A DNA stretch of 32,000 bases. Source: Moraxella nasicaprae (lineage in GTDB: Bacteria; Pseudomonadota; Gammaproteobacteria; Pseudomonadales; Moraxellaceae). The notes beneath the pieces were generated by a model, which was not told the origin of the DNA, did no database searches, and worked only from the letters and a program-made list of their open reading frames with translations. The stretch is taken from assembly GCF_025643275.1 (NCBI RefSeq), contig NZ_CP089977.1:2010001-2042000 (forward strand). Reading direction: 5' to 3'. Within the stretch, counting starts at the first letter, position 1. The number at the start of each line of letters is the position of its first letter. This document shows, in pieces, positions 18,062 through 31,718 of the stretch. The translations under genes were made by a program, and so were the position numbers.

Positions 18062-20005
18062 TTAAAAGCTCATCCCCAAACTTACACCACTGACCCAATC
18101 TTTGTTTGAAAAACCTGTGGGCTCACTAATTGCTTTTGAGGTGAAAACATCGTAATTAAAACTTAGGTGGGGGTTGTTTGTGTTTGGTGTGTATTGTCCT
18201 TTGATACCTATGGCAGCACCTGCTAGATGTTGTCCAAGCAATAGCTCATTTTGGCTTTTGTCGTGGTTGCTAACATAACCTGCATCCAATCCTAGATAGA
18301 TGGCATGGCTAGATTGGCTGTTTTGTGAGTTGTTTTGATTGGTTGTGGTGCTTTGTTTGGTTGTTTGTTGTTGATTTAGAAAGCTTGGATAAAAGCTGAT
18401 ATCTTGTCTTATCAAGATGCCATTATCCGCAGATAATGAACGCTCTCCATCAAAACCTCTGACGGTGTATCTGCCACCAATCGCCATTTTTAAATCTGGT
18501 GTTAGACTGTCAGTGGCGTATTGGGCTTTGAGTGTGGTGCTGTGGACAACGGGTAGTGGCTTATTTCTTATGATTGGATTGTATCTACTGGTTAGACCCA
18601 AGGTTAGCTGATAGATACCAACACGAGATGAGCCTTCATCAAACAGCTCTTCTGGCGATGGCAAGGCATTAAAAGCGGCGGTACCACGTTTATAAGAAAT
18701 ATCGGTGCTTAGGCTATGATTGGCTTGTTTGCCAAAAGCGGTCTCATGGCTAATGCCAAATAAATAACCTGCAGTTTTACGGGTTTGCACATCAATGGTC
18801 GTACCATCAATATCACTTTCTTGGGATTTGATATAGCCGCTAGTATATACATGGCTTTTACTGCGAGCATCTCTATGCACCAGATGAGATAATTTGGCGG
18901 TATATTGATTGGACTTACCGCCATAGACATAATCTTGGTTACTACCCGCCACAGTTTGATGGTAGGTGTAGTGATTGGCGTTGAGTTGTAATAAGCTGTT
19001 TTTAATGGGAATAACATAACCCATACTGTAATTCTTAGAGCCTTTGCTCTTATCAGACGGATAGTCTTTGTCATCATTGATTTGATTACCCAAATCTCGC
19101 CCAAAGCTAAGATAGAATAAATCATTATAGTTTGCCAGATTATCTAGGCTAAGTGTCGCCATGCCTTGATATTTGCCTGTGGATTTAGAGCCTGAATCAT
19201 CAATGCTTAGACTGCCACGAAGACGGCGGTGTTGGGCATAATCAATTAAAATATCACTAAAGCCAATGCCGTTACCAACAGGTTTATTGTTTTTATCATG
19301 ACCAATTGCTTGCAACCCATCAGATGGTGCAATCTTAAAATTGGCATCAGCACTTGGCACGCGTTTAAAGTTCTCAAGCGTGGTTTCCAAATCACGGATG
19401 TTTAACAGCTTACCTGATTGAGTGGTTAAGGCGGTGTCTAAGATAGCAGGATAAGCCATATTTGTCTGTTTAACATAGACAGGTACTTTACTATCGGCTG
19501 TATTGACCACCACCTGAGCAATCTTACCTGGGATTAAGGTTAATCTTAACTTCCCACCTGCCAAATTCTGATCAGCTACCATAATACGACTGGTGACATA
19601 GCCTTTGTCAATCAAGCGATTTTGCACACGAGTGGCAATGGCATTGATGTCAGCAACTGTCATGCACTTACCTAATACACTGTGATTACCCATGATTTCA
19701 GGCATGAGTGCAAAGCCAAGCTTGTCTGCAAAGATGGCATCATCAGCTGATAACACCGAATAGCTTATCTGATGAATATCAAAGCAAATGGCGTTATCTG
19801 CTACGGCTTGTTCTTGGGTTTGGGCAACCATATTGGCAGAAACAGCATCCACCACCACGCTTGGATTTGGCACTAATTGTTCAAGCAATGCCTGATTGCG
19901 AGCATCTTGGGTTTGGATTAGGGTTTGGTTGGCGGTGTTGGCAGAGACGGTGTTATGAACCAAAATTGCAATAATTGTGGTGGCAAGGATTGTTGGTCTA
20001 ATCAT
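18062..20005 (-). CDS. cdiB: Two-partner-secretion outer-membrane transporter (ShlB/FhaC/HecB family, CdiB/TpsB)
   Basis: 647 aa. Signal peptide MIRPTILATTIIAILVHNTVSA. POTRA-type block GKCMTVADINAIATRVQNRLIDKGYVTSRIMVADQNLAGGKLRLTLIPGKI. C-terminal beta-barrel with RYTVRGFDG and a terminal ...GMSF. Adjacent to and divergent from the large exoprotein. Confidence 0.92.
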   Translation of the reverse strand: MIRPTILATTIIAILVHNTVSANTANQTLIQTQDARNQALLEQLVPNPSVVVDAVSANMVAQTQEQAVADNAICFDIHQISYSVLSADDAIFADKLGFALMPEIMGNHSVLGKCMTVADINAIATRVQNRLIDKGYVTSRIMVADQNLAGGKLRLTLIPGKIAQVVVNTADSKVPVYVKQTNMAYPAILDTALTTQSGKLLNIRDLETTLENFKRVPSADANFKIAPSDGLQAIGHDKNNKPVGNGIGFSDILIDYAQHRRLRGSLSIDDSGSKSTGKYQGMATLSLDNLANYNDLFYLSFGRDLGNQINDDKDYPSDKSKGSKNYSMGYVIPIKNSLLQLNANHYTYHQTVAGSNQDYVYGGKSNQYTAKLSHLVHRDARSKSHVYTSGYIKSQESDIDGTTIDVQTRKTAGYLFGISHETAFGKQANHSLSTDISYKRGTAAFNALPSPEELFDEGSSRVGIYQLTLGLTSRYNPIIRNKPLPVVHSTTLKAQYATDSLTPDLKMAIGGRYTVRGFDGERSLSADNGILIRQDISFYPSFLNQQQTTKQSTTTNQNNSQNSQSSHAIYLGLDAGYVSNHDKSQNELLLGQHLAGAAIGIKGQYTPNTNNPHLSFNYDVFTSKAISEPTGFSNKDWVSGVSLGMSF

Positions 20006-20041
20006 AGGTGCATTCCAGCAGCGTATTTAAGAATATTACAT

Positions 20042-20070
20042 ATTGTAACCATACAAACACAATCTTACAA
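20042..20070 (-). promoter_or_regulatory. Predicted sigma70-type promoter for cdiB
   Basis: On the minus strand: -35 TTGTAA (rc of 20065-20070), 17-nt spacer, -10 TACAAT (rc of 20042-20047). It lies about 37 nt upstream of the cdiB ATG. Prediction only. Confidence 0.35.
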
Positions 20071-20087
20071 TCTCATTTAAATTACCA

Positions 20088-20116
20088 TTGCTGCATTTAT
20101 ACATATTTGTTACAAT
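20088..20116 (+). promoter_or_regulatory. Predicted sigma70-type promoter for cdiA
   Basis: -35 TTGCTG (20088-20093), 17-nt spacer containing a TG extension (20108-20109), and -10 TACAAT (20111-20116). It lies 32 nt upstream of the cdiA ATG. Prediction only. Confidence 0.35.
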
Positions 20117-20148
20117 GTAGTTGCTCTGCATTTTAAAAGAAAAGCTGT

Positions 20149-20334
20149 ATGAACCGCATATATAAAACCGTCTTTAACAAATCCACACAGACTTGGATGG
20201 CGGTTTGTGAATATGCTCGTCGTGTTGGTTGTGGCGGTGCAAGTAGCACCAGCAAATCTGCGGCACGAGGCGTAGCGGGTTCTATTACTTTCTTATCCTT
20301 TGCAGTACTTATGGCTTTACAGTCAGCCCATGCA
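20149..20334 (+). other. Extended signal peptide region (ESPR) plus Sec signal of CdiA
   Basis: The MNRIYK..FNK...W.AV.E.A.R motif is typical of ESPR-bearing TPS/autotransporter proteins. It is followed by the hydrophobic core ITFLSFAVLMALQSAHA, with predicted cleavage after AHA (aa 62). Confidence 0.75.
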
Positions 20335-23300
20335 GGCACCCCCACCACCATCATCGCTGACTCATCTGCCCCTAAAAATCTACAACCCATCATCTTAAAT
20401 ACCGCAAGCGGCATCACCTCTGTGAATATTGCCACCCCCAATGCTCGTGGCTTATCCAATAACCATTACAGCCAGTTTGATGTCGGTAGCACAGGTGCTG
20501 TATTAAATAACAACCGTAAAGCAGTGGGTACCCAAATCGCAGGCTTTGTGGCAGCCAACCCTTTTATGGCTCGTGGCGAAGCCTCTACCATCTTAAACCA
20601 AATCAATTCCAATAATCCAAGTCATTTAAATGGCTTTGTTGAAGTGGCAGGTAAAAAGGCAGATGTCATCATTGCCAATCCCAATGGTCTTATCATCAAT
20701 GGTGCTGGCTTTATCAATGCTGGTAATGTCCATCTGGCAGCAGCAAATGCCCAAGTAAAACAAGGGCAATTATCAGCTTATCAAGTCGGCAATGGTGATA
20801 CTGGCAATATTCAAGTCAATGGCAAATTAAACCTACAAGGCACCGATTATGCTGCTCTCATCGCTAAAACCGCCCAAATCAATGATGAAATTTATGCAGG
20901 AAAACAGCTGGATGTTATCCTAGGTGAAAACCAAGTCAATCTTCAAAACGGTGATTTTACCAAGCTTAATGCCACCAATAAACAAACCCATGTATCATCT
21001 GCTAGCCAAACCACCAATAAAGAACAACAAGGCGTTGCCTTAGATATTTCATCATTGGGCGGAATGTATGCAGGTAAAATCCACCTTGTCGGTACAGACA
21101 AAGGCTTTGGGGTCAATAACCAAGGGGTCATCACAGCAACCGGCAATGGACAACAACTTGGCACAGGTACACTCACGCTAGATAGTCAAGGCAATCTTGT
21201 CAATACAGGCACCATGTCTGCTAAAGATAAACTTGCCATCAACACCCATGATAACACCACTCAAAACGATGGCACCTTGTTAAGTGAACAAGCTGATATC
21301 GCCATCAATACCGCAAGTCTTAATAACACAGGTGCCATTCACAGCACCCAAACCACCAAGATTGCAGCCAAACAAGCGATTGAAAACCTTGGCAGTGTCT
21401 ATGGCGGTGTTTTGCAAGTGGATACGGATAAGCTTAATAACACCGGCCAGCTTATCCAAACTGGTACAGGTAAGCTTGATATCACCACCAATACACTGAC
21501 CAACTCCGATAAAGCGGTTATCGGTCAAAGCTTGTATGGACAAACCATCATACCCACACCTTCTACCCCAAGCAGCGATCAAAGTGCTGGTAGCATTAGC
21601 AATACTCCTATACAGACAAGCACAACAACAGGTAATATCGCCACAAACCCAAATACGCAGACTTTAAACAAACCATCCACCCCAAACGCTAACGGTCATA
21701 TTACTGCCAGTCAGTCTTTGACTAACACAGGCAATCAAGCACTCATCACTGCCACAGGTGACATCAGCATCAATGCTGATAAAACCCATAACACCAAGCA
21801 AGCATCGATTGATGCCGCCACTTTAAACACCAACACTCTTGTCAATACCGACAGTAAAATCGCCTTAGATGATATTAATTGGCAATTGACTCGCTTTGAT
21901 AACAGCAAAGGTAGTATCACTGCCAAAGATGGTATGGTGATTGGCAGTGAATCTGCCATCATCAACACAGGTGGCAGCTTAACAAGCGGTGGCGATATGA
22001 CACTTATCGCCAAAGACAGGATTATCAATCAAGACGGCACCATTACCGCGGTCAAACAAGCAGATATTACTGCCAAAGAGGTGCAAAACGGCGGCAGCAT
22101 CACGGCTGATACACTTACCATCACCCAACAAGCCGACTACGCCCACACAGATCAAGATAAGCTTGTTGCCAATCGCTTAGCGTTTACAACAAGTGGTAAG
22201 CTGATTAACCAAAGCCAATTAACCGCAGGTCATGATTTGACACTGAACGCCAAACACATTGACAACAGCCAAACAGGTATCATCACCAGCGGCAATCACA
22301 CACAGATTACTAGCCAAACAAACATCACCAACCAAGGCTTAATCAATGGTGAAAATACACTCATCAAAGCCAAAAACACCATCAACAATCTTGCCGGTGG
22401 TCGTATCTATGGCACGCATCTTGCAATACAGGCTGATACGCTAAATAATACGCCAGCAAAAGCTGTCAACCAACAAACCAATCAAGAAAATGACCATCAC
22501 ACCGCCCCTGTCATCGCAGCCAGAGGGCGTCTGGATATCGGTGTTAATCACTTAAACAACAACCCCAATCCAGATAGAGCAGGTAAATTTAATAAAAACT
22601 TTGACAGTCAAGCTTTAATCACAAGTCTTGGCAGTCTGCACATCGGTGGTAGCCTAGATGACAACCATCACGCCACAGGCAAAGCACAGACGGTTATCAA
22701 TAAAGGGGCAACCATAGAGTCTGGTGGACAGATGCAAATTGCCACCAGCACCTTACTAAATACCAATGCCGACTTTAAAAAGCATACGGTCAAAGTGGAA
22801 GCCGAATCCGTTTATGGACAAACACTTTACCGCAACCGTGAGCAATCTGGAGTGCCTGCCACCCAAAAAAGCACCAACATAGCCGATTTGGGCAAAAAGC
22901 CCATGGCAGGTTTATTTGACTGCCCTAAAGGCAGTGAATGTATTGTCAATTATGATCACAACTCCACCATTTGGTCATACTTTAAGATTGAACCACCCAA
23001 ACAGCCTGTTCCAAACATCAAAGCCAAAGACCTGTTAGATGAACCTGACTTACCAAAAGGCGAGACCACTCAAAGCTGTGCCTTGGCGGGTGCAAACAAT
23101 CAAGCCTGTGCCCAATACAACAAAGATCTGGCGAATTACACCAAGGTCATGGGGCCATTATTAAAATGGGAAGAAGATAATGCTGCCTCCATTGAGGCAC
23201 TGGAGCTTGCCATTCGGGAGCATAACCGCCAATTTAATAAAAATAAAAGCGATGTGGATTTGGCGTTAAACATCTACACCACCGATGAAGCATATTTAGG

Positions 23301-26300
23301 TCCAACCAGCCGTAAAGGTGCACCAGATGGTGCTTTGTATGTCAAAGATGTCAGTGGTAACTTTTATCGCCTCACTGAAGAGGTGGATGTCATTACCACT
23401 GACTTTGTCGTCTATGAAGATAAAACTCTATCTTCTGACCCTGCTCGTATGGTATCAGGAGAAAATCTTATCATCCATGGCGACACCTTAATTAACGATA
23501 AAAGCCAAATGAATGCGGGTAATGGCTTTGCAATCATTGGTGATACCGTGATTCAAACACCTGACAATGGCTTGCATGGTGAAAAAACCAAAGTCACCGA
23601 AAATGGTCGCTTTACCAGATATAGCGTATTTGCCTCAGGAATTAACCGCCACAAGCGCAAAGCAACTGGCGGTGGTAGCTTTACTCAATCCTTTGCACCA
23701 CTAGCAACGTATGAACTTCCCATCTTAAACGCTACCATCAATACCACACCAAGTAGCACCAAGATTGATGAGCTAGCCACAGGCAATGATACTTCTGTGA
23801 TTGTTGATGTTAAAGACAGTACCATCACCTTACCAACTTCAGCCCTCTACATCATCAACGCTGACAATCCCAATCTACCACTAATTCAAACCGACCCTGC
23901 ATTCACCAATTACAAACAGTGGCTCTCCTCTGATTATATGCTAAAAGCCCTACAATCAGACCCAAATCACATCCACAAACGCCTCTCTGATGGTTATGGT
24001 GAACAACAGCGTATTAAAGATCAGTACTATCTACTGACAGGCAGACACATCAACACTGATTACCGCAGTCATGAAGATGCTTATAAAACCTTGATGGATA
24101 ATGGCATCACGGCAGCCAAACAGTTTAACTACACACTTGGCACGGCACTCACGCCTGAGCAGATGGCAACTCTCACCACGGACATCGTTTGGCTTATCAA
24201 ACAGCCCATCACGGTTGTCACCAAAGACAAAGATGGCAATAGCATCAGCAAAACCCAAGACGCCTTAGTGCCTAAGCTGTATCTGCGTTCTGCCAATGCA
24301 GATACTGGCACACTGAGTCCTGATGGCAGATACAGTGCCGTCTCAGCCAGAAGCATTGACATGCAGCTGACTGGCAATCTTGACAATAATGGCAACATCA
24401 TTGCCAAAGACACCGCAAACATCAATGCAAACAATGTCACCAATGACGGCGGTGTTTATGGTAACTTTGTCGCTGTCACAGCAGATAACACCATTGCCAA
24501 TCATGGCACCATGTATGCAAACAGTGCCATGAGGCTAAGTGCTGGCAATAACATCATCAACCAAAGCCAAACAGCTACCCATCACAATAAACAAGGGCAA
24601 AGCGCTTCATCTAACACCGCCATCACACGCATCGCCACCATCCGTGTAAGCGATGGATTAAAAGACCAAACAGATGACAATGGCAATCCATTAACCACCC
24701 TAAGTCTGCGTGGCAATCAGATCATCTATCAAGGTGCCGCATCAGACAACGCAGGTGGTAGTACCCACATGACCGCCAAAAACGGCATTAACATCACCAC
24801 CATCACCACAAGCAATCACATCAATGCTGTCGCTGATGAGAATAACTACTTTAACTACAGCCAAAGCACCGATGTGGGTTCAACCATCACCAGTCATGGC
24901 AACTTAACGATAGCCACAACAGGCAAAGATGCTGACATCAACATCAAAGGTTCAAGCCTACAATCAGACGGCATGACTGCTGTTATTGGGACAGGCGACA
25001 TTAGCATCACCGAAGGTCGTGCTACCCAAAGCTTGGATACAGCAAGTAAATTTACCAACAAAGGACTTGTTAGCAAAAAAACCACTCAAACCGCCTATCA
25101 GATGGACAGCAATACCAGCATTCAAAGTACGGTGGGTGGTGAGACTGTACTGATGAAATCAGGTAGGAATATGCAGGTTGTGACAACCAATGTACTTGCC
25201 GACAAAGACATTCTGCTTGCCTCAGGTGGCAATATGACCATTGCCAGTGCTGCTAATACACAAAGTATGCACGAATATTCACAGGTGGATAAAAAAGGCT
25301 TATTTACCACTTCGCCAACTTCTGCCACATTGGGTAAACAACGCACTCAAAATCAAGCAGATGCCATGCAGACCACCTATACAGGCTCGCTGATTGGTAC
25401 TACAGGAGGTAATGTTCGCCTAGTAAGTAATGACAGTCTTGCCATCACCAATAGCGATGTCATTGCCAAAAAAGATGGTGCCAACACCAATACAGGCAAT
25501 ATCTACATCCAAGCCACTGATGCCACCATCCAAAGCCAAAACACCATCAGCAACAACAGCCATCGCTTTGCCCAAAAAACCACAGGAGTGACTGCCAGCG
25601 TCTCTAGCAGTCTTGTTAGCGAGGTTCAAAGCCTAGAAACGCTAAAAGAGTCTGTTAATGACACCGACTCTCGCAAAGCTAAATTGGCTGGCACTTTAGC
25701 GGCAGCTTCCAAGGTTAAAACGCTTATCAATAACCTAAACAATAAAGACTTGGGTAGTCTAAGGGCTCAAGCCACTATTGGCTCACAAAGCACCAAGAGC
25801 CAAACCACAAGCCATCAAGAAACTAATGATGCTGCTAACCTTTTGGCTCAAAATAATCTGATCGTCAACCTTAAAGGCAAAGGTGCGGATTCGGATTTGA
25901 CTGTCATAGGTAGCAATCTTACAGTGGGCAACAACTTCTACCAATCGGTAGAAGGCGATGTCATCTACCAGGCCTCAACACAAACTGATACCACAAACAG
26001 CCAAAACAGCAGTAAAGGTTGGGGCGTGGGTATCTATGCCAGCACTCAGATAGGTGGTGGTCAATCCAATCACGGCTTTACCATCAATGCCAACAAAGCA
26101 AAAGGCAATAGTACTGAAACAACCACCACCCACACCAATACCCAAGTCACTGTTGGCGGTACAACCATCAATGACATTGGTGGCAATCTTATCCTAGATG
26201 GTGCCAATCTTGATACCAAGCACCTAACTGGTACAGTTGGCGGTGATTTGATTGTCAAAAGCCGTCAAGACACCTATCAATACACCCATGATCAAAAACA

Positions 26301-28035
26301 AGCAGGATTTAGTGCCGATGTTGGCTTTAATGGCAAACCCCAAAGCATAAGCATCAATGGTGGTAAAACCGATGTAGATGCCGATTATGCCCAAGTCACC
26401 CGCCAATCAGGCATCAAAGCCAAAGAGTCCACCCTAATCGTACAAGGACAAGGTAAGTTTACTGGTGGCTATCTCATCACCGATGCCGGTAAAAACCAAA
26501 CCCAGTTTGCCCAAGGTATCCAAACCCAAGACATTCACAACCATCTAGATTATGAAGGTGATGCCATCAGTGTCGGCATTGGTATTGGTGTAGACACCAG
26601 CAATCCAAATGGCAAAGCAAAACCTGCCCTACAAGGCCTAGGCTATGGTAAAATAGACCCAACTCATAAAACCAGTACCACCCATTCTGCCATCACAGAC
26701 CAAGCAGGGCTTAGCCATATTAATACAGACAACTTCAAACAAGCAGAAGTTCAACATGAGCTTAACCAAATCATCACCAATGATTTTAATAAAGAGCAAG
26801 TGCTTAAAGAGTTAAATGCTCAGGTGAATATTACTACTGAGTTTGGGAGAGAAGCTCCAAAAAGAGTGGCGGAGTTTGCCGACAACCAAGCCTTTAAACT
26901 TATTCAAAAGCTAGATGAACTTAATGATAAAAACATTGACATTGCTTCTGATGAGTATCAAAATACCATCAAAGAGATTGATAAGTGGAGCGAAGGTGGG
27001 GTTTATCGTGTGGCGTTGCATACGGCTGTTGGTGCTTTGGGGACAGGCACTATCGAAGGAGCAATATCAGCAGGTGCAACCGCCTACACCATTCCAAAGA
27101 TAGACGAATACCTAAAAGAACAAGGCTTTGATGAAACCACAAGACAAACCGCCTTGCTTACCTTATCAGCAGGCATTGGTGCGACTGTTGGTGGCGATAC
27201 TGCAAGCACTGCCAATAATGCTGGGCAGGTGCAGTGGAATTATTTGAGTCATAAGGAGAACGAAAGATTGAGAGAATTAAAAAAAGAGAAAGCTGGACTA
27301 TCTAACGCCTACGGCAATTGTGTATCTCAAAGATGTGCAGAAATTACACGAGAAATAAAAGTGCTTGAAGATCTCAGTAAACAACGAGATAAGGCGTTTG
27401 ATAAAGCTTATACAGACTGCCGTGCAGGCAAGGATTGTAATCAGTTTTATTATTTGCATGTCATTCAAAGAAGAGACTGGAATAAGGATGCAGAAGAATT
27501 ATTTAAGGTAAATCGCAGTGATTGGAAGCTGATGGAGGATTATCAAAATGCCTTTCACAACTACAATGCAAATGGCATTCCAGAAAAATTACCTAATGGT
27601 AACTACCGATACAAAAAATTTGTTCACAATAACGGGCAAATGGAAATAATTATTGATACAAAAGACGGTATTTTAAGTGATGATGACTACACTAGAATTG
27701 TAAGAGATCCAACCAATGCTGGAACATTTAATTATTACGCCCCCAGTGATGCTAGTGGTCATAAATTATATGATGTAGATCCGTATACAAACTTTGGGAA
27801 TGGTAAGGGCGACAAAACAACTCTATCAAACAGAAAAAATGTCATGCTACGCCTACCAGTCCCCTATACAAATTACACAGTTCCAATTGGAACTTCTGGT
27901 TTTTGGACAGGAAATCTACCAGGAAAAACCACAAACCCAAAAACAATGGGGGCAAATAGAATAACAAATAATGCCGAACGTAGCTTTAACGCATCACAAG
28001 ATTTTTGTGAGAATAATAAGGAGGATTGCAAATGA
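20149..28035 (+). CDS. cdiA: CdiA/TpsA filamentous-hemagglutinin-type exoprotein with a C-terminal polymorphic toxin (2628 aa)
   Basis: Extended signal peptide MNRIYKTVFNKSTQTWMAVCEYARR...ALQSAHA. The TPS domain has NNHYSQFDV and ANPNGLIING (NPNG at 20677-20688). Long FHA-type beta-helix repeats follow. A conserved central block reads HKRLSDGYGEQQRIKDQYYLLTG...LTTDIVWL...VPKLYL. The pretoxin region ends in VQWN (27229-27240), followed by a 264-aa variable C-terminus. Confidence 0.95.
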   Translation: MNRIYKTVFNKSTQTWMAVCEYARRVGCGGASSTSKSAARGVAGSITFLSFAVLMALQSAHAGTPTTIIADSSAPKNLQPIILNTASGITSVNIATPNARGLSNNHYSQFDVGSTGAVLNNNRKAVGTQIAGFVAANPFMARGEASTILNQINSNNPSHLNGFVEVAGKKADVIIANPNGLIINGAGFINAGNVHLAAANAQVKQGQLSAYQVGNGDTGNIQVNGKLNLQGTDYAALIAKTAQINDEIYAGKQLDVILGENQVNLQNGDFTKLNATNKQTHVSSASQTTNKEQQGVALDISSLGGMYAGKIHLVGTDKGFGVNNQGVITATGNGQQLGTGTLTLDSQGNLVNTGTMSAKDKLAINTHDNTTQNDGTLLSEQADIAINTASLNNTGAIHSTQTTKIAAKQAIENLGSVYGGVLQVDTDKLNNTGQLIQTGTGKLDITTNTLTNSDKAVIGQSLYGQTIIPTPSTPSSDQSAGSISNTPIQTSTTTGNIATNPNTQTLNKPSTPNANGHITASQSLTNTGNQALITATGDISINADKTHNTKQASIDAATLNTNTLVNTDSKIALDDINWQLTRFDNSKGSITAKDGMVIGSESAIINTGGSLTSGGDMTLIAKDRIINQDGTITAVKQADITAKEVQNGGSITADTLTITQQADYAHTDQDKLVANRLAFTTSGKLINQSQLTAGHDLTLNAKHIDNSQTGIITSGNHTQITSQTNITNQGLINGENTLIKAKNTINNLAGGRIYGTHLAIQADTLNNTPAKAVNQQTNQENDHHTAPVIAARGRLDIGVNHLNNNPNPDRAGKFNKNFDSQALITSLGSLHIGGSLDDNHHATGKAQTVINKGATIESGGQMQIATSTLLNTNADFKKHTVKVEAESVYGQTLYRNREQSGVPATQKSTNIADLGKKPMAGLFDCPKGSECIVNYDHNSTIWSYFKIEPPKQPVPNIKAKDLLDEPDLPKGETTQSCALAGANNQACAQYNKDLANYTKVMGPLLKWEEDNAASIEALELAIREHNRQFNKNKSDVDLALNIYTTDEAYLGPTSRKGAPDGALYVKDVSGNFYRLTEEVDVITTDFVVYEDKTLSSDPARMVSGENLIIHGDTLINDKSQMNAGNGFAIIGDTVIQTPDNGLHGEKTKVTENGRFTRYSVFASGINRHKRKATGGGSFTQSFAPLATYELPILNATINTTPSSTKIDELATGNDTSVIVDVKDSTITLPTSALYIINADNPNLPLIQTDPAFTNYKQWLSSDYMLKALQSDPNHIHKRLSDGYGEQQRIKDQYYLLTGRHINTDYRSHEDAYKTLMDNGITAAKQFNYTLGTALTPEQMATLTTDIVWLIKQPITVVTKDKDGNSISKTQDALVPKLYLRSANADTGTLSPDGRYSAVSARSIDMQLTGNLDNNGNIIAKDTANINANNVTNDGGVYGNFVAVTADNTIANHGTMYANSAMRLSAGNNIINQSQTATHHNKQGQSASSNTAITRIATIRVSDGLKDQTDDNGNPLTTLSLRGNQIIYQGAASDNAGGSTHMTAKNGINITTITTSNHINAVADENNYFNYSQSTDVGSTITSHGNLTIATTGKDADINIKGSSLQSDGMTAVIGTGDISITEGRATQSLDTASKFTNKGLVSKKTTQTAYQMDSNTSIQSTVGGETVLMKSGRNMQVVTTNVLADKDILLASGGNMTIASAANTQSMHEYSQVDKKGLFTTSPTSATLGKQRTQNQADAMQTTYTGSLIGTTGGNVRLVSNDSLAITNSDVIAKKDGANTNTGNIYIQATDATIQSQNTISNNSHRFAQKTTGVTASVSSSLVSEVQSLETLKESVNDTDSRKAKLAGTLAAASKVKTLINNLNNKDLGSLRAQATIGSQSTKSQTTSHQETNDAANLLAQNNLIVNLKGKGADSDLTVIGSNLTVGNNFYQSVEGDVIYQASTQTDTTNSQNSSKGWGVGIYASTQIGGGQSNHGFTINANKAKGNSTETTTTHTNTQVTVGGTTINDIGGNLILDGANLDTKHLTGTVGGDLIVKSRQDTYQYTHDQKQAGFSADVGFNGKPQSISINGGKTDVDADYAQVTRQSGIKAKESTLIVQGQGKFTGGYLITDAGKNQTQFAQGIQTQDIHNHLDYEGDAISVGIGIGVDTSNPNGKAKPALQGLGYGKIDPTHKTSTTHSAITDQAGLSHINTDNFKQAEVQHELNQIITNDFNKEQVLKELNAQVNITTEFGREAPKRVAEFADNQAFKLIQKLDELNDKNIDIASDEYQNTIKEIDKWSEGGVYRVALHTAVGALGTGTIEGAISAGATAYTIPKIDEYLKEQGFDETTRQTALLTLSAGIGATVGGDTASTANNAGQVQWNYLSHKENERLRELKKEKAGLSNAYGNCVSQRCAEITREIKVLEDLSKQRDKAFDKAYTDCRAGKDCNQFYYLHVIQRRDWNKDAEELFKVNRSDWKLMEDYQNAFHNYNANGIPEKLPNGNYRYKKFVHNNGQMEIIIDTKDGILSDDDYTRIVRDPTNAGTFNYYAPSDASGHKLYDVDPYTNFGNGKGDKTTLSNRKNVMLRLPVPYTNYTVPIGTSGFWTGNLPGKTTNPKTMGANRITNNAERSFNASQDFCENNKEDCK
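25990..26835 (+). repeat. Direct repeat copy 1 (846 bp), inside cdiA
   Basis: Matches 29384-30229 at an offset of 3394 bp. The encoded 282 aa are identical in both supplied translations. The antisense track ORFs 26070..26258 / 29464..29652 and 26224..26406 / 29618..29800 are also identical. Identity starts at a25990/a29384 (the preceding bases t and c differ) and ends at t26835/t30229 (the next bases a and c differ). Confidence 0.95.
27241..28032 (+). other. CdiA-CT toxin region of the primary cdiA (264 aa after VQWN); no family assigned
   Basis: Begins YLSHKENERLRELKKEK, immediately after the VQWN motif that occupies the VENN position. Contains six Cys (NCVSQRC, TDCRAGKDC, FCENNKEDC). I recognise no catalytic motif. 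Confidence 0.7.
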
Positions 28036-28133
28036 GAAGTAGTAAAGTATTTTTTTTACTAATCTGTATCTTTTTATTTGTTTTGATTGTATATAATATA
28101 TTATCAAATCATGTAATTAGAACTTTTTATTAA
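28032..28133 (+). CDS. Micro-ORF 1: 33-aa single-pass membrane peptide, candidate cognate immunity (cdiI) for the primary toxin
   Basis: The ATG overlaps the cdiA TGA (ATGA at 28032-28035). A strong AAGGAGG Shine-Dalgarno at 28018-28024 sits 7 nt upstream. My translation is MRSSKVFFLLICIFLFVLIVYNILSNHVIRTFY. The ORF is below the 60-aa cutoff of the track. Confidence 0.5.
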   Translation: MRSSKVFFLLICIFLFVLIVYNILSNHVIRTFY

Positions 28134-28156
28134 ATAGTACTACTGCTGTCAATTAA

Positions 28157-28240
28157 GGAATCAAAATTGCCCATGATTCTTTTGACGAATCTGAAAAATT
28201 ATGTGAAGCAAATAAGAGTAATTGTTATCATGAAAAATAA
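28157..28240 (+). pseudogene. Fossil 3' tail of a homologous cdiA-CT (module 2)
   Basis: My translation GIKIAHDSFDESEKLCEANKSNCYHEK* aligns with the primary toxin tail GANRITNNAERSFNASQDFCENNKEDCK* (A-x2-SF-x2-S-x3-CE-x-NK-x2-C). There is a stop immediately upstream and no start codon. Confidence 0.6.
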
Positions 28241-28343
28241 TTTATTTTTTATTTTTTTGTTTTTTGTTTTTATTCTGTTAATTATTTTTTCAAAGACTAT
28301 TATTGCTTATTTCTTAGTTTCATTTGGGTATGTTACTGTTTGA
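28230..28343 (+). CDS. Micro-ORF 2: 37-aa single-pass membrane peptide (orphan immunity candidate)
   Basis: The ATG at 28230 overlaps the end of fossil tail 2, the same arrangement as micro-ORF 1 with cdiA. My translation is MKNNLFFIFLFFVFILLIIFSKTIIAYFLVSFGYVTV. The Shine-Dalgarno is weak. Confidence 0.4.
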   Translation: MKNNLFFIFLFFVFILLIIFSKTIIAYFLVSFGYVTV

Positions 28344-28405
28344 TTTTACCTCTACATGATTCACATTAATAATCAAAAGTGTTTTCGAAATTAATGTTAA
28401 TATAG

Positions 28406-28546
28406 ATTTTATCAAAAACAGGAAAACCGCAGGCAATAGGGGCGGGTAGAATTATTAGTGAAAAATAAGACAAGCTAAAAAATAAGTTTGATAAGTCTCA
28501 AAAAATTTGTGAGAATGATTATGTTCGATGTGAAGAAAATGATTAG
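28406..28546 (+). pseudogene. Fossil 3' tail of a homologous cdiA-CT (module 3), with an internal stop
   Basis: My translation ILSKTGKPQAIGAGRIISEK*DKLKNKFDKSQKICENDYVRCEEND* aligns with the primary tail PGKTTNPKTMGANRITNNAERSFNASQDFCENNKEDCK*. There is an in-frame TAA at 28466-28468. Confidence 0.6.
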
Positions 28547-28637
28547 ATATTTTTGCATTGCTTTTGCAATCGGTGGGGTTTTATGGATCATACTTTACTC
28601 TTTAGCTGTGATAGGATTACTACATAGCAACTTATGA
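28539..28637 (+). CDS. Micro-ORF 3: 32-aa single-pass membrane peptide (40 aa if started at 28515), orphan immunity candidate
   Basis: The ATG at 28539 overlaps the end of fossil tail 3. My translation is MIRYFCIAFAIGGVLWIILYSLAVIGLLHSNL. In-frame upstream ATGs lie at 28515 and 28521. Its TGA overlaps the ATG of the next ORF (ATGA at 28634-28637). Confidence 0.4.
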   Translation: MIRYFCIAFAIGGVLWIILYSLAVIGLLHSNL

Positions 28638-29140
28638 ATAATCTTGGGTCTCTAGCACGGAAGAAAATTGGGAAGATGCTAATGAGAATTAGGATAAGAA
28701 GATTTATTCTTATAACAGCCATACTAATTATTCCCAGTTATTATCTGCTAAGCATGTATACCAGAGGATTGGATATAAGAAAGGATTCTATTTTGGGTGA
28801 AGCAATAGCGGATATCCCTTTCAAATATAATCCATCTAGGAATCTAGCAGTAACTCAATCAATTTCCATAAAAAATGGCAAATTGGTACATTATGTATAT
28901 ATTTTCAAATTTCATGGTGTATTTTATAATAAGAAACTTATTTTCAGCTTCAAGGGGGATGCTACATGCGGTGATTATAATTCAGAAAATGTTAATTCAT
29001 GGATAAATTGGCATGGTGATAGCAAATTAAAAATCAATATTAACAGCAATACGTTACAGAAAGTGTTAATAAAGGAAGAGAATTATGATAATGTTCAAAT
29101 TGATTACTTATATTATTTCGAATCCTGTAATAGGATATAG
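28634..29140 (+). CDS. Hypothetical membrane-anchored protein (168 aa), possible orphan immunity or accessory protein
   Basis: Track ORF. Basic N-terminus, one TM helix (RRFILITAILIIPSYYLLSMY), then a roughly 120-aa N/K/I/Y-rich domain. Extremely AT-rich and coupled by ATGA to micro-ORF 3. I recognise no family. Confidence 0.55.
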   Translation: MNNLGSLARKKIGKMLMRIRIRRFILITAILIIPSYYLLSMYTRGLDIRKDSILGEAIADIPFKYNPSRNLAVTQSISIKNGKLVHYVYIFKFHGVFYNKKLIFSFKGDATCGDYNSENVNSWINWHGDSKLKININSNTLQKVLIKEENYDNVQIDYLYYFESCNRI

Positions 29141-29212
29141 CACGTATAATGTGTATACATAATATTATTAAAATAGCCCGTAGATACCATCTCCCAACCC
29201 CAAAGTCAAACC

Positions 29213-29362
29213 CTAAATTGCCTGAATTTGTGGTTGGTAGGGTTTTTGGTGCTTAACCACACCAAAACAGATTTGTACCAATTTACGCATACAAGCATAT
29301 AGTACGGCAGGATGTGTGTCACACACCATTAATTTAAGCTGTTTTAGGATTGTGTTGCACGC
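29213..29362 (-). pseudogene. IS110-family transposase, C-terminal remnant (5'-truncated)
   Basis: The C-terminal 49 aa of the minus track ORF 29213..29539 read ..NTILKQLKLMVCDTHPAVLYACMRKLVQICFGVVKHQKPYQPQIQAI*. This resembles the conserved IS110/IS1111-type C-terminus (..NP.LK.FY.RL...GK..KVALVACMRKLL...FGVLK...P..) as I remember it. The rest of that ORF is antisense to the cdiA repeat and is not real coding sequence. Confidence 0.5.
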
Positions 29363-29383
29363 ACTACCACATGCTATGCCAAC

Positions 29384-30229
29384 ACCACAAACAGCCAAAA
29401 CAGCAGTAAAGGTTGGGGCGTGGGTATCTATGCCAGCACTCAGATAGGTGGTGGTCAATCCAATCACGGCTTTACCATCAATGCCAACAAAGCAAAAGGC
29501 AATAGTACTGAAACAACCACCACCCACACCAATACCCAAGTCACTGTTGGCGGTACAACCATCAATGACATTGGTGGCAATCTTATCCTAGATGGTGCCA
29601 ATCTTGATACCAAGCACCTAACTGGTACAGTTGGCGGTGATTTGATTGTCAAAAGCCGTCAAGACACCTATCAATACACCCATGATCAAAAACAAGCAGG
29701 ATTTAGTGCCGATGTTGGCTTTAATGGCAAACCCCAAAGCATAAGCATCAATGGTGGTAAAACCGATGTAGATGCCGATTATGCCCAAGTCACCCGCCAA
29801 TCAGGCATCAAAGCCAAAGAGTCCACCCTAATCGTACAAGGACAAGGTAAGTTTACTGGTGGCTATCTCATCACCGATGCCGGTAAAAACCAAACCCAGT
29901 TTGCCCAAGGTATCCAAACCCAAGACATTCACAACCATCTAGATTATGAAGGTGATGCCATCAGTGTCGGCATTGGTATTGGTGTAGACACCAGCAATCC
30001 AAATGGCAAAGCAAAACCTGCCCTACAAGGCCTAGGCTATGGTAAAATAGACCCAACTCATAAAACCAGTACCACCCATTCTGCCATCACAGACCAAGCA
30101 GGGCTTAGCCATATTAATACAGACAACTTCAAACAAGCAGAAGTTCAACATGAGCTTAACCAAATCATCACCAATGATTTTAATAAAGAGCAAGTGCTTA
30201 AAGAGTTAAATGCTCAGGTGAATATTACT
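29384..30229 (+). repeat. Direct repeat copy 2 (846 bp), the 5' part of the orphan cdiA-CT
   Basis: See copy 1 (25990-26835). Confidence 0.95.
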
Positions 30230-31483
30230 CAAGCATTTGATGCTGAACGCCGTGCCATTAGAAGTGAATTTGCTAAAAAAGCAGAAGACCATCGCAAACA
30301 AGCAGAAAGGCTATCAGATGACGACCCAAGAAAGACAGAGCTTGTACAAGAGGCCCAAAAGATTGAACAAAACCTAAGACTCTTCGATGGCATCACCTCT
30401 GCCTTGTATGCTCCTAATTCAAATGGTATTATAGGTGATGTGGCAAGAGCAGCAAGCCCAGAGCTTGCTTATCGGATTGGTCAAGAATTTAAAGAAAACA
30501 AAGCCCTAAACCAAACAGACAATGGTAACAGACCAGAAGAGCAATCAGCCAATCATCTACTGGCTCATGCCATACTTGGTGCTGCCACAAGCTATGCCAC
30601 AGGTAATGACATCGCCACAGGTGCCGTCTCTGCGGTAAGCAATGAGGCTGTCGCCCCAGTATTGTCAAATTACCTATATGGCACCAAAGAAACAAAAACA
30701 CTTAGCCAAGAACAAAAAGACACCATCACAAGCATTCTAAACCTAGCCACTGCTACAACCATCTACACAGCAACTGATGGCAGCACCACTGATGCAGTAA
30801 GTGGGGCTGAGATTGGGAAGGTTGGGGTGGAGTGGAATGCGGATACTATACGTCTAGATGGCAAAGATGCTCATGATAGAGTATTTGAAGCAGAAGCTAA
30901 ACGATTGTTTCCTAATAATCCTGAGTTGCAGCAGCAATATATTGCTCAACAAAATAAAAAAATTGGTGAAATTAGTTTAGCAATCATAATGACCGCTGTG
31001 CCAACCGAAATTTATGAGGTTGCACCAATCGGCAAAGGGTTTGGTATTATTGCAAAGGGAAGCAAGAAAGTTGTTGGTCTTTTTAAGAGCAAAGGAGATG
31101 CTGAAAAGGTATTGGAAGGAGCCAAGAAGCAATCTAAAGCTGATAACAACATATATAGAGATGATAGTTATGGCTATACTTGGTCGCAAGGAAGACCGCG
31201 AGATTTTAATCGAAATTTAGCCACTCACTGGAATAAGCATAAGCATGAATTTCCCGAGTTTCGGTCTCAAAACGATTATTATAGATTTGCAAGAAATTTT
31301 GTTGACAATCCTCCTGCTGGAACTCTAACTAAGGTTAGAGCTAATGGAGATATGGTATTTTATCAACCGTCAACAAATACTTTTGCTATCAAGGATAAAA
31401 GTGGTAGCATTATGACGCTATTTAAACCTGATGTTACAAAACATAAGTATGCTACAAATTTGGAGTATTTTCATGCACAATAG
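29420..31483 (+). CDS. cdiA: Orphan cdiA-CT: 5'-truncated CdiA C-terminal fragment carrying an alternative pretoxin region and toxin
   Basis: The frame is open from 29348 (stop at 29345-29347) with no credible start or RBS, no signal peptide and no TPS domain. The track start at 29420 is an internal GTG. The first 282 aa are identical to CdiA aa 1948-2229. The sequence then diverges (QAFDAERRAIRSEF...), reaches a DUF637/PT-like region (ANHLLAHAILGAATSYATG...) ending in VEWN (30827-30838), and finishes with a 214-aa distinct C-terminus. Confidence 0.85.
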   Translation: MGIYASTQIGGGQSNHGFTINANKAKGNSTETTTTHTNTQVTVGGTTINDIGGNLILDGANLDTKHLTGTVGGDLIVKSRQDTYQYTHDQKQAGFSADVGFNGKPQSISINGGKTDVDADYAQVTRQSGIKAKESTLIVQGQGKFTGGYLITDAGKNQTQFAQGIQTQDIHNHLDYEGDAISVGIGIGVDTSNPNGKAKPALQGLGYGKIDPTHKTSTTHSAITDQAGLSHINTDNFKQAEVQHELNQIITNDFNKEQVLKELNAQVNITQAFDAERRAIRSEFAKKAEDHRKQAERLSDDDPRKTELVQEAQKIEQNLRLFDGITSALYAPNSNGIIGDVARAASPELAYRIGQEFKENKALNQTDNGNRPEEQSANHLLAHAILGAATSYATGNDIATGAVSAVSNEAVAPVLSNYLYGTKETKTLSQEQKDTITSILNLATATTIYTATDGSTTDAVSGAEIGKVGVEWNADTIRLDGKDAHDRVFEAEAKRLFPNNPELQQQYIAQQNKKIGEISLAIIMTAVPTEIYEVAPIGKGFGIIAKGSKKVVGLFKSKGDAEKVLEGAKKQSKADNNIYRDDSYGYTWSQGRPRDFNRNLATHWNKHKHEFPEFRSQNDYYRFARNFVDNPPAGTLTKVRANGDMVFYQPSTNTFAIKDKSGSIMTLFKPDVTKHKYATNLEYFHAQ

Positions 31484-31718
31484 CAATAAATTCAATAGCT
31501 GTAAGATATGTGGTTACTATGAAAGCGGTTGGTTTCCATGGGGTGTTGATGGTAGAACGCCATCTTTTGATATTTGCCCCCAATGTAATGTGCAGTTTGG
31601 CTATGAAGATTGTAACGATGAGGCTATAAAAAGTTATAGAAAAGTTTATGAAGAGATGATTAAATATGACCAAAATAAGAAAAATTTCCATACCTATATC
31701 CATGGATGCTCTAAATAG
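31473..31718 (+). CDS. cdiI: Candidate immunity protein (cdiI) for the orphan toxin; small zinc-ribbon, CPCC-like cysteine-rich protein (81 aa)
   Basis: The ATG at 31473 overlaps the last codons of the orphan cdiA-CT. GGAG at 31462-31465 sits 7 nt upstream. The protein MHNSNKFNSCKICGYYESGWFPWGVDGRTPSFDICPQCNVQFGYEDCND... has a CxxC...CxxC pair. The track start at 31431 is probably over-extended. Confidence 0.65.
   Translation: MHNSNKFNSCKICGYYESGWFPWGVDGRTPSFDICPQCNVQFGYEDCNDEAIKSYRKVYEEMIKYDQNKKNFHTYIHGCSK

Follow-up and report, generated by a model that had tools for sequence, protein, structure and literature searches.

We describe here a contact-dependent growth inhibition (CDI) locus of Moraxella nasicaprae in which the toxin gene cdiA is followed by a series of very small open reading frames (ORFs) that are candidate immunity genes. 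The locus lies in a stretch of 32,000 nucleotides (nt) of contig NZ_CP089977.1 (positions 2,010,001 to 2,042,000, forward strand), hereafter called the window, and coordinates are those of the window unless another locus is named. In the explanation that we favour, with a probability of about 0.65, the first of these ORFs (micro-ORF1) is the immunity gene of the resident toxin, the toxin tail and the peptide gene are swapped together as cassettes, and the copies further downstream form an orphan immunity array. Judging by their position, conservation and family context, the micro-peptides probably confer immunity.

The locus is a CDI system of type Vb, as a CdiA with ESPR, TPS and FHA regions and a CdiB of the Omp85/ShlB kind are both identified by Pfam. 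Its features, up to the third micro-ORF, are the following.

18062–20005, reverse strand: cdiB, the TpsB transporter gene, divergent from cdiA (Pfam ShlB 1e-76, POTRA_2, POTRA_3)
20149–28035, forward strand: cdiA, 2628 amino acids (aa) (Pfam ESPR, TPS, Fil_haemagg; ORF list)
28018–28024, forward strand: AAGGAGG ribosome-binding site of micro-ORF1, within the cdiA coding sequence (read from the sequence)
28032–28133, forward strand: micro-ORF1, 33 aa, single hydrophobic helix, candidate cognate cdiI, type 1 (ATGA overlap; orthologue in locus L002)
28151–28240, open from 28157, forward strand: type 2 toxin tail remnant, last 27 codons and stop (nucleotide homology to L003; tblastn)
28230–28343, forward strand: micro-ORF2, 37 aa, orphan immunity candidate, type 2 (L003 orthologue behind an intact toxin)
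28411–28546, forward strand: type 3 toxin tail remnant with an in-frame TAA at 28466–28468 (nucleotide homology to L006, L011 and L020; tblastn)
28521–28637, forward strand: micro-ORF3, 38 aa, orphan immunity candidate, type 3 (orthologues in L006, L011 and L020, the last with an intact toxin)

It had been predicted from the sequence that no ORF of 60 aa or more directly follows cdiA, and the ORF list agrees, as none on the forward strand starts before 28634. The TGA of cdiA (28033–28035) overlaps the ATG (28032–28034) of the 33-codon micro-ORF1, which encodes MRSSKVFFLLICIFLFVLIVYNILSNHVIRTFY, and the AAGGAGG lies 7 nt 5' of this ATG; the predicted ATGA overlap and ribosome-binding site are thus seen directly. 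The two tail-homologous pieces expected further downstream were recovered by tblastn with the last 70 toxin residues as the query and the 665 nt downstream of cdiA as the subject space. The first match (28169–28225, E=1e-4) falls in the open frame 28157–28240, which reads GIKIAHDSFDESEKLCEANKSNCYHEK up to its stop codon. The second (28415–28534, E=4e-6) carries the in-frame stop, and 28415–28546 reads KTGKPQAIGAGRIISEK, stop, DKLKNKFDKSQKICENDYVRCEEND, stop. The 3' end of each piece is overlapped by a tiny ORF encoding a hydrophobic helix, as anticipated. Micro-ORF2 overlaps its remnant by 11 nt, and an identical 11-nt overlap is present in L003; micro-ORF3 also overlaps its remnant and is read from the conserved ATG at 28521 (38 aa), with alternative starts at 28515 and 28539. 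We also observed that cdiB is divergent from cdiA (window 18062–20149), compared to the usual cdiBAI order.

In each of the three window peptides, a short basic N-terminus is accompanied by a single stretch of 19 residues with a Kyte-Doolittle value of 2.5–3.1, in line with the transmembrane character proposed for them. Across all types, the micro-peptides are of 30–40 aa with one hydrophobic stretch of 19–25 residues. We shuffled the region 28021–28640 2000 times with dinucleotides preserved; 97% of the shuffles contained no such ORF, 3% contained one and none contained two or more, as against three in the actual sequence. In Nei-Gojobori counts, the proportion of synonymous differences (pS) exceeded that of nonsynonymous differences (pN) for every pair of copies: 0.11 against 0.06 for micro-ORF1 and L002 (93% nt identity), 0.38 against 0.15 for micro-ORF2 and L003, and 0.59–0.83 against 0.20–0.22 for micro-ORF3 and its orthologues (window against L006, pS 0.74 and pN 0.20). 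Pooled over the three window peptides and their orthologues, the counts are 25.5/61.8 synonymous (0.41) and 33.5/244.2 nonsynonymous (0.14; Fisher p=3.5e-6). Among the six frames, only that of the micro-ORF is free of stops in every copy. Since pS is greater than pN and this is the sole frame open in all copies, we take the micro-ORFs to be conserved protein-coding genes, including the two window copies beside dead toxin stubs. Purifying selection on them, again with the orphan copies of the window included, is supported by the same counts.

The expectation that gene callers would miss such ORFs was borne out in part. They are left uncalled in L020, L021 and L036–L038; the type 2 copy of M. 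cuniculi (L003), however, has been deposited as hypothetical protein SIS10658.1. A search for known RNA elements gave no Rfam family in the window, and neither promoters nor terminators were informative.

Loci of toxin-region homologues were taken from genomes and metagenomes, and at the first search pass these homologues came from Moraxella and Psychrobacter only. In about 15 loci of these two genera we observed seven sequence types of micro-ORF, distributed as follows.

Type 1: window (micro-ORF1) and L002
Type 2: window (micro-ORF2) and M. cuniculi L003, the latter with an intact toxin
Type 3: window (micro-ORF3), L006, L011 and L020, the toxin being intact in L020
Type 4: L002, L010 and L006, with a conserved TTG start and a GGAG site; frameshifted in L011
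Type 5: L001
Type 6: P. piscatorii L004 and M. nasovis L021
Type 7: L036–L038, again with an ATGA overlap

All members of the Cys-tail subfamily, and likewise the Psychrobacter/M. nasovis branch, have a hydrophobic micro-ORF of 30–40 codons at the toxin stop. It starts either 1 nt past this stop or within the toxin gene, whose end it then overlaps by as much as ~26 nt. The unit of tail plus micro-ORF is conserved behind homologous toxins elsewhere, and a given tail type always occurs with the same peptide type across the loci. In L003 and L020, no other gene lies between the micro-ORF and the next toxin fragment.

An alignment of the peptides (A4) revealed that types 1, 4, 5 and 7 end in a similar motif of a small residue, Phe or Leu, and Tyr or His (RTFY, TSFY, ASLY, TLYL/TLHL), that type 3 always ends in GLLHSNL, and that type 6 ends in GMGV. 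The short periplasmic end of the micro-peptides may be their functional part. In Psychrobacter sp. PL19 (L024 3138–3610), the post-toxin micro-ORF, which begins MRKKEKYIYIISFIII, is broken by an insertion of the IS630 family (DDE_3).

The same comparisons bear on what is exchanged between loci. Nucleotide homology between toxin types ends at ~27803–27820, at the junction of the toxin core and tail. Because this homology does not extend past the conserved core, these alignments indicate that the toxin tail and the peptide gene are exchanged, and left behind, as one unit. Module 2 (28151–28356) is 82.5% identical to 1082–1286 of M. cuniculi L003, where the toxin is intact, and module 3 (28411–28635) has 72% nt identity to L006 and L011 and 70% to L020. 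The remnants 28151–28240 and 28411–28546 each precede an intact micro-ORF, and a third toxin remnant (28661–28681) precedes a cdiI gene of 152 aa, which is the arrangement of an orphan cdiA-CT/cdiI array (CT, the C-terminal toxin region of CdiA). The original prediction had read these pieces as a fossil record of successive displacements in which immunity candidates were retained. That reading fits, and the ~21 nt of toxin with the 152-aa gene extends the series by a fourth fossil. The features downstream of micro-ORF3 are the following.

28661–28681, forward strand: last ~21 nt of an unrelated CdiA-CT (97.5% identity of window 28661–29368 to L027 3980–4685)
28682–29140, forward strand: orphan cdiI, 152 aa, N-terminal transmembrane segment and soluble domain (99% identical to P0244)
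29384–31483 (ORF 29420–31483), forward strand: orphan cdiA-CT module (direct repeat D1; ORF list)
31473–31718, forward strand: putative cdiI of the orphan module, 81 aa from 31473, the ORF opening at 31431 (assigned by position alone)

An ORF of 168 aa had been named in the original prediction as another gene that might protect against the resident toxin. It is actually a gene of 152 aa starting at 28682. Its closest relatives are of 152 aa, and in M. veridica (L027) the gene starts at the ATG equivalent to 28682, directly behind a different orphan CdiA-CT of 320 aa that ends in RKLGRR. The 48-nt upstream extension (from 28634), by which the 168-aa ORF abuts micro-ORF3 through an ATGA, is fortuitous. 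We found no homologue of the 152-aa gene beside any other member of the resident toxin family, and its product is unrelated to the 168-aa proteins of L021 and L026. As the partner of a different toxin, which is intact in M. veridica, the ORF is ruled out as the immunity gene of the resident toxin; by these comparisons it is the orphan cdiI of an unrelated toxin.

The orphan module behind it begins with an exact copy of part of cdiA: its first 300 nt (29384–29683) equal 25990–26289 (direct repeat D1, 100% over the reported 300 nt). The two translations remain the same well past this repeat and diverge after VEWN. The toxin domain of the module gave no family match. The ORF that follows it, of 81–95 aa, has CxxC pairs and a faint rubredoxin-like match, and otherwise no family match.

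The CT of the resident CdiA begins after VQWNYL, at ~27241, and can be divided into three parts.

27241–27504, forward strand: N-terminal helical CT domain with two Cys pairs, CVSQRC and DCRAGKDC (weak DUF6862; structure model)
27505–27840, forward strand: conserved unclassified toxin core, ~110 aa (alignments A2 and A3; relatives; AF2 model)
27841–28035, forward strand: variable C-terminal tail of the toxin, type 1, ending SFNASQDFCENNKEDCK at the stop (homology limit; distant relatives end at the core)

Pfam did not report PT-VENN for the CT of the window, and a hit is present in the same-core relatives P0072 and P0063. The match of the N-terminal 65 CT residues to DUF6862 is weak (E=4e-4, under the Pfam cut-off); the model of this domain has three long helices (pLDDT 76–92). 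A profile search of 1.84 billion representative proteins gave 628 relatives of the core at E<=1e-3, and the core occurs at the C-termini of PT-VENN/CdiA proteins, of RHS proteins and of phage proteins of ~200 aa with an N-terminal DUF7211 motif. Distant relatives stop right after the core, and the Moraxellaceae toxins have an extra variable tail of 50–65 aa. The core matches no Pfam, NCBIfam or PHROG family, and sequence searches of the PDB returned 0 matches with the whole-CT profile A1 (E<=1) and with the core profile A3 (E<=10). The AF2 model of the core, made with 60 sequences, has a pLDDT of 88 and is polar, with mixed strands and helices. Residues H18, E47, N76, H86, D90, P93, G98 and D103, numbered from 27505, are invariant in alignments A2 and A3. 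This invariant His/Glu/His/Asp set suggests that the core is a hydrolase, possibly a metal-dependent one.

The genes that follow relatives of the toxin point to its site of action. Each of the more distant CdiA-linked relatives (37–57% identity; L005, L007, L008, L012–L019, L034) is followed, in the same position, by a polytopic hydrophobic ORF of 62–111 aa. For the RHS-linked relatives, the next gene encodes a signal-anchored (L026) or a lipobox (L035) protein in both of two cases. Since the genes after the toxin always encode membrane-embedded or periplasm-facing proteins, we lean towards an action of the toxin at the periplasmic face of the inner membrane, and its target is probably a component of the cell envelope. 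In L034, the ORF directly behind the distant toxin relative (1442–1810) is a Cys-rich one of 111 aa with three helices that the gene caller missed, and a paralogue of it lies just upstream of the toxin (395–751). M. veridica L027 (1800–2971) carries a different orphan toxin with a DUF6862-type N-terminal CT domain, followed by a polytopic membrane ORF of 143 aa; this arrangement suggests that DUF6862 marks CDI toxins acting at the membrane or in the periplasm.

We also noted the phage proteins with this core. They are of ~190–260 aa and have the N-terminal DUF7211 (PF23847) motif (L022 668–4812, L023, L032/L033 2001–2579). Between the genes for the terminase large subunit and the portal there is either one such gene or a row of as many as four DUF7211 genes, and none is accompanied by an immunity gene. 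They look like head-packaged cargo, for which DUF7211 may be a packaging tag.

Among the known systems closest to the locus is CDI with ionophore toxins, where hydrophobic five-helix bundles depolarise the membrane and CdiI proteins are two-helix hairpins of 72–100 aa (PMC11630599). The statement of the original prediction that CdiI proteins are usually soluble and of ~100–150 aa therefore needs qualifying, as these membrane CdiI proteins were already known. In the EC93 family and its Imm-CdiI proteins, as here, a gene for a small, very hydrophobic inner-membrane protein lies directly after cdiA, and these systems, to which the present locus can be likened, are polymorphic with type-specific protection (PMC11630599, PMC3482391). 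However, the peptides described here are of 30–40 aa with one hydrophobic stretch and not two-helix hairpins, and the toxin is polar and alpha/beta, with the invariant His/Glu/His/Asp typical of an enzyme, and not a hydrophobic bundle. The ColM family offers another parallel. ColM is a soluble enzyme that degrades lipid II at the periplasmic face of the inner membrane, and its immunity proteins, of 110–232 aa, are the anchored, periplasmic Cmi or PmiA/BmiA/PmiC with 3–6 helices (PMC5821083). As in the toxin family studied here, where the partners are candidates by gene position, one toxin domain goes with varied, unrelated immunity partners. There is no sequence or Pfam relation between the two (the ColM catalytic domain PF14859 gave no match in the toxin at E<=1), and ColM is a TonB-dependent bacteriocin, whereas delivery here is via CdiA.

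Orphan cdiA-CT/cdiI modules are known downstream of cdiBAI loci (Poole et al. 2011, PMC3150448). The locus shares with them the displaced 3' fragments of toxin genes, each with an intact immunity gene, downstream of the expressed pair, and the module at 29384–31483 is a classical orphan with a 5' homology arm. The micro-ORF modules differ in that the fossils retain only 27–44 toxin codons and that the exchanged unit is sub-domain (tail and peptide), not a whole CT, with the breakpoint inside the toxin domain. In size and topology, the micro-peptides recall AcrZ, MgrB, MgtS and CydX, which are of 30–50 aa with one helix and the N-terminus inside, and are often missed by annotation. Those proteins, however, are regulators or subunits of housekeeping membrane complexes; they show neither polymorphism nor coupling to toxin genes.

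In the mechanism that we propose, micro-ORF1 would encode the cognate CdiI, translationally coupled to cdiA through the ATGA overlap. Its product would be a single-pass inner-membrane peptide (N-in/C-out), the basic N-terminus being cytoplasmic and 4–12 residues being exposed in the periplasm. The toxin would be made of three parts, a disulfide-type helical domain at the N-terminus, the widespread enzyme-like core of ~110 aa and a Moraxellaceae-specific tail, the last forming one exchangeable cassette with the micro-ORF. Recombination inside the conserved core would repeatedly bring in new cassettes, and the older ones would be shifted downstream, their toxin part being worn to a tail stub. 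Micro-ORF2 and micro-ORF3 would stay under selection as orphan immunity genes, protecting the cell from neighbours whose toxins are of type 2 or 3. At the membrane surface, the cognate peptide would neutralise incoming or self-delivered toxin by a type-specific contact with the variable tail, and this contact would hold or mis-orient the enzyme away from its membrane-associated substrate. Anatomy, conservation, coding selection, linkage and the lack of another candidate gene are what the sequences show. Immunity is strongly inferred from them, the periplasmic site of action is somewhat less certain, and docking of the tail by the peptide, the weakest step, is put forward tentatively.

Several points weigh against this mechanism. 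With a hydrophilic tail and only 4–12 exposed residues in the peptide, it is hard to see how the two would form a binding interface. Because tail and peptide are adjacent, they may co-vary through physical linkage alone, and the purifying selection seen in the orphan copies may go back to a time when these still followed intact toxins. Around modules 2 and 3, promoter-like sites occur no more often than in shuffles. Foldseek gave no match at E<0.8 for the core model against the PDB and BFVD or for the whole-CT model against the PDB. No immunity gene accompanies the phage homologues of the core, and if these proteins are injected cargo, their target might be accessible on the cytoplasmic side.

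Three other explanations of the micro-ORFs were weighed. That they are chance frames in T-rich DNA, or the decayed first helices of longer immunity genes without present function, is very improbable. The composition of the region (41% T, 74% A+T) does favour Phe, Leu and Ile codons, and the exact window peptides are absent from a collection of 15 billion proteins. However, the shuffles never exceeded one such ORF, pN/pS is well under 1 at pS of up to 0.83, and frames and starts are conserved across genera along with the ribosome-binding site and the overlap geometry; the shuffles, selection counts and frame conservation effectively refute the chance-ORF reading. It is somewhat less improbable, though still improbable, that the micro-ORFs are real genes with another role, either helpers of CdiA export, release or stability or peptides like type I toxins, immunity being encoded elsewhere or unneeded. 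Their size and composition resemble those of Hok, Ibs and TisB. By definition, genes for type I toxin peptides are free-standing, with an overlapping antisense RNA and no coupling to a further ORF. Against such another role, translational coupling to the toxin stop is found in all types here. Moreover, the micro-ORFs occupy exactly the place in which sister subfamilies have the membrane ORFs of 62–111 aa, they are kept as orphans beside dead toxin stubs, which is typical of immunity genes and not of helpers, and L003 and L020 contain no other candidate gene.

A stronger competitor, which we nevertheless consider unlikely, is that the peptides give immunity indirectly, by binding an inner-membrane protein or lipid that serves the toxin as receptor, entry route or substrate, and not by binding the tail. 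Binding to a larger membrane protein is known for small proteins of the AcrZ kind, and the peptides are almost wholly intramembrane, whereas both the core and the tail of the toxin are polar. The N-terminal domain of the CT could serve in membrane targeting or entry, and the domain of DUF6862 type also precedes the different toxin of L027, likewise with a membrane ORF next. For ColM, immunity of the PmiA type is believed to operate within the membrane and may be non-cognate (PMC5821083). However, if the partner were a conserved host protein, there would be no need for seven divergent peptide types, each with its own tail type, and the retention of several orphan types by a single locus speaks for type-specific protection.

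Neither CDI nor orphan modules nor membrane CdiI proteins are novel in themselves. What appears to be new in the literature searched is the micro-protein scale and single-helix form of the candidate immunity gene, its association with a toxin that is polar, enzyme-like and of unclassified fold, and diversification through a sub-domain cassette of tail plus peptide; no earlier description of micro-immunity proteins or of DUF7211 was found there. The chances are about even that these single-helix peptides of 30–40 aa are complete immunity proteins, the smallest known for polymorphic toxins, directed against a new envelope-acting domain, with specificity residing in the swappable cassette. If this is true, the smallest size known for an immunity protein is roughly halved, and many toxin loci that seem immunity-less hide unannotated micro-immunity genes; if 33–38 residues suffice for immunity, standard gene calling would systematically miss such proteins. 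The locus shows toxin/immunity diversification at the sub-domain scale, brings to attention an uncharacterised toxin fold common to CdiA, RHS and phage proteins, and offers a minimal model for a soluble enzyme neutralised by a transmembrane helix.

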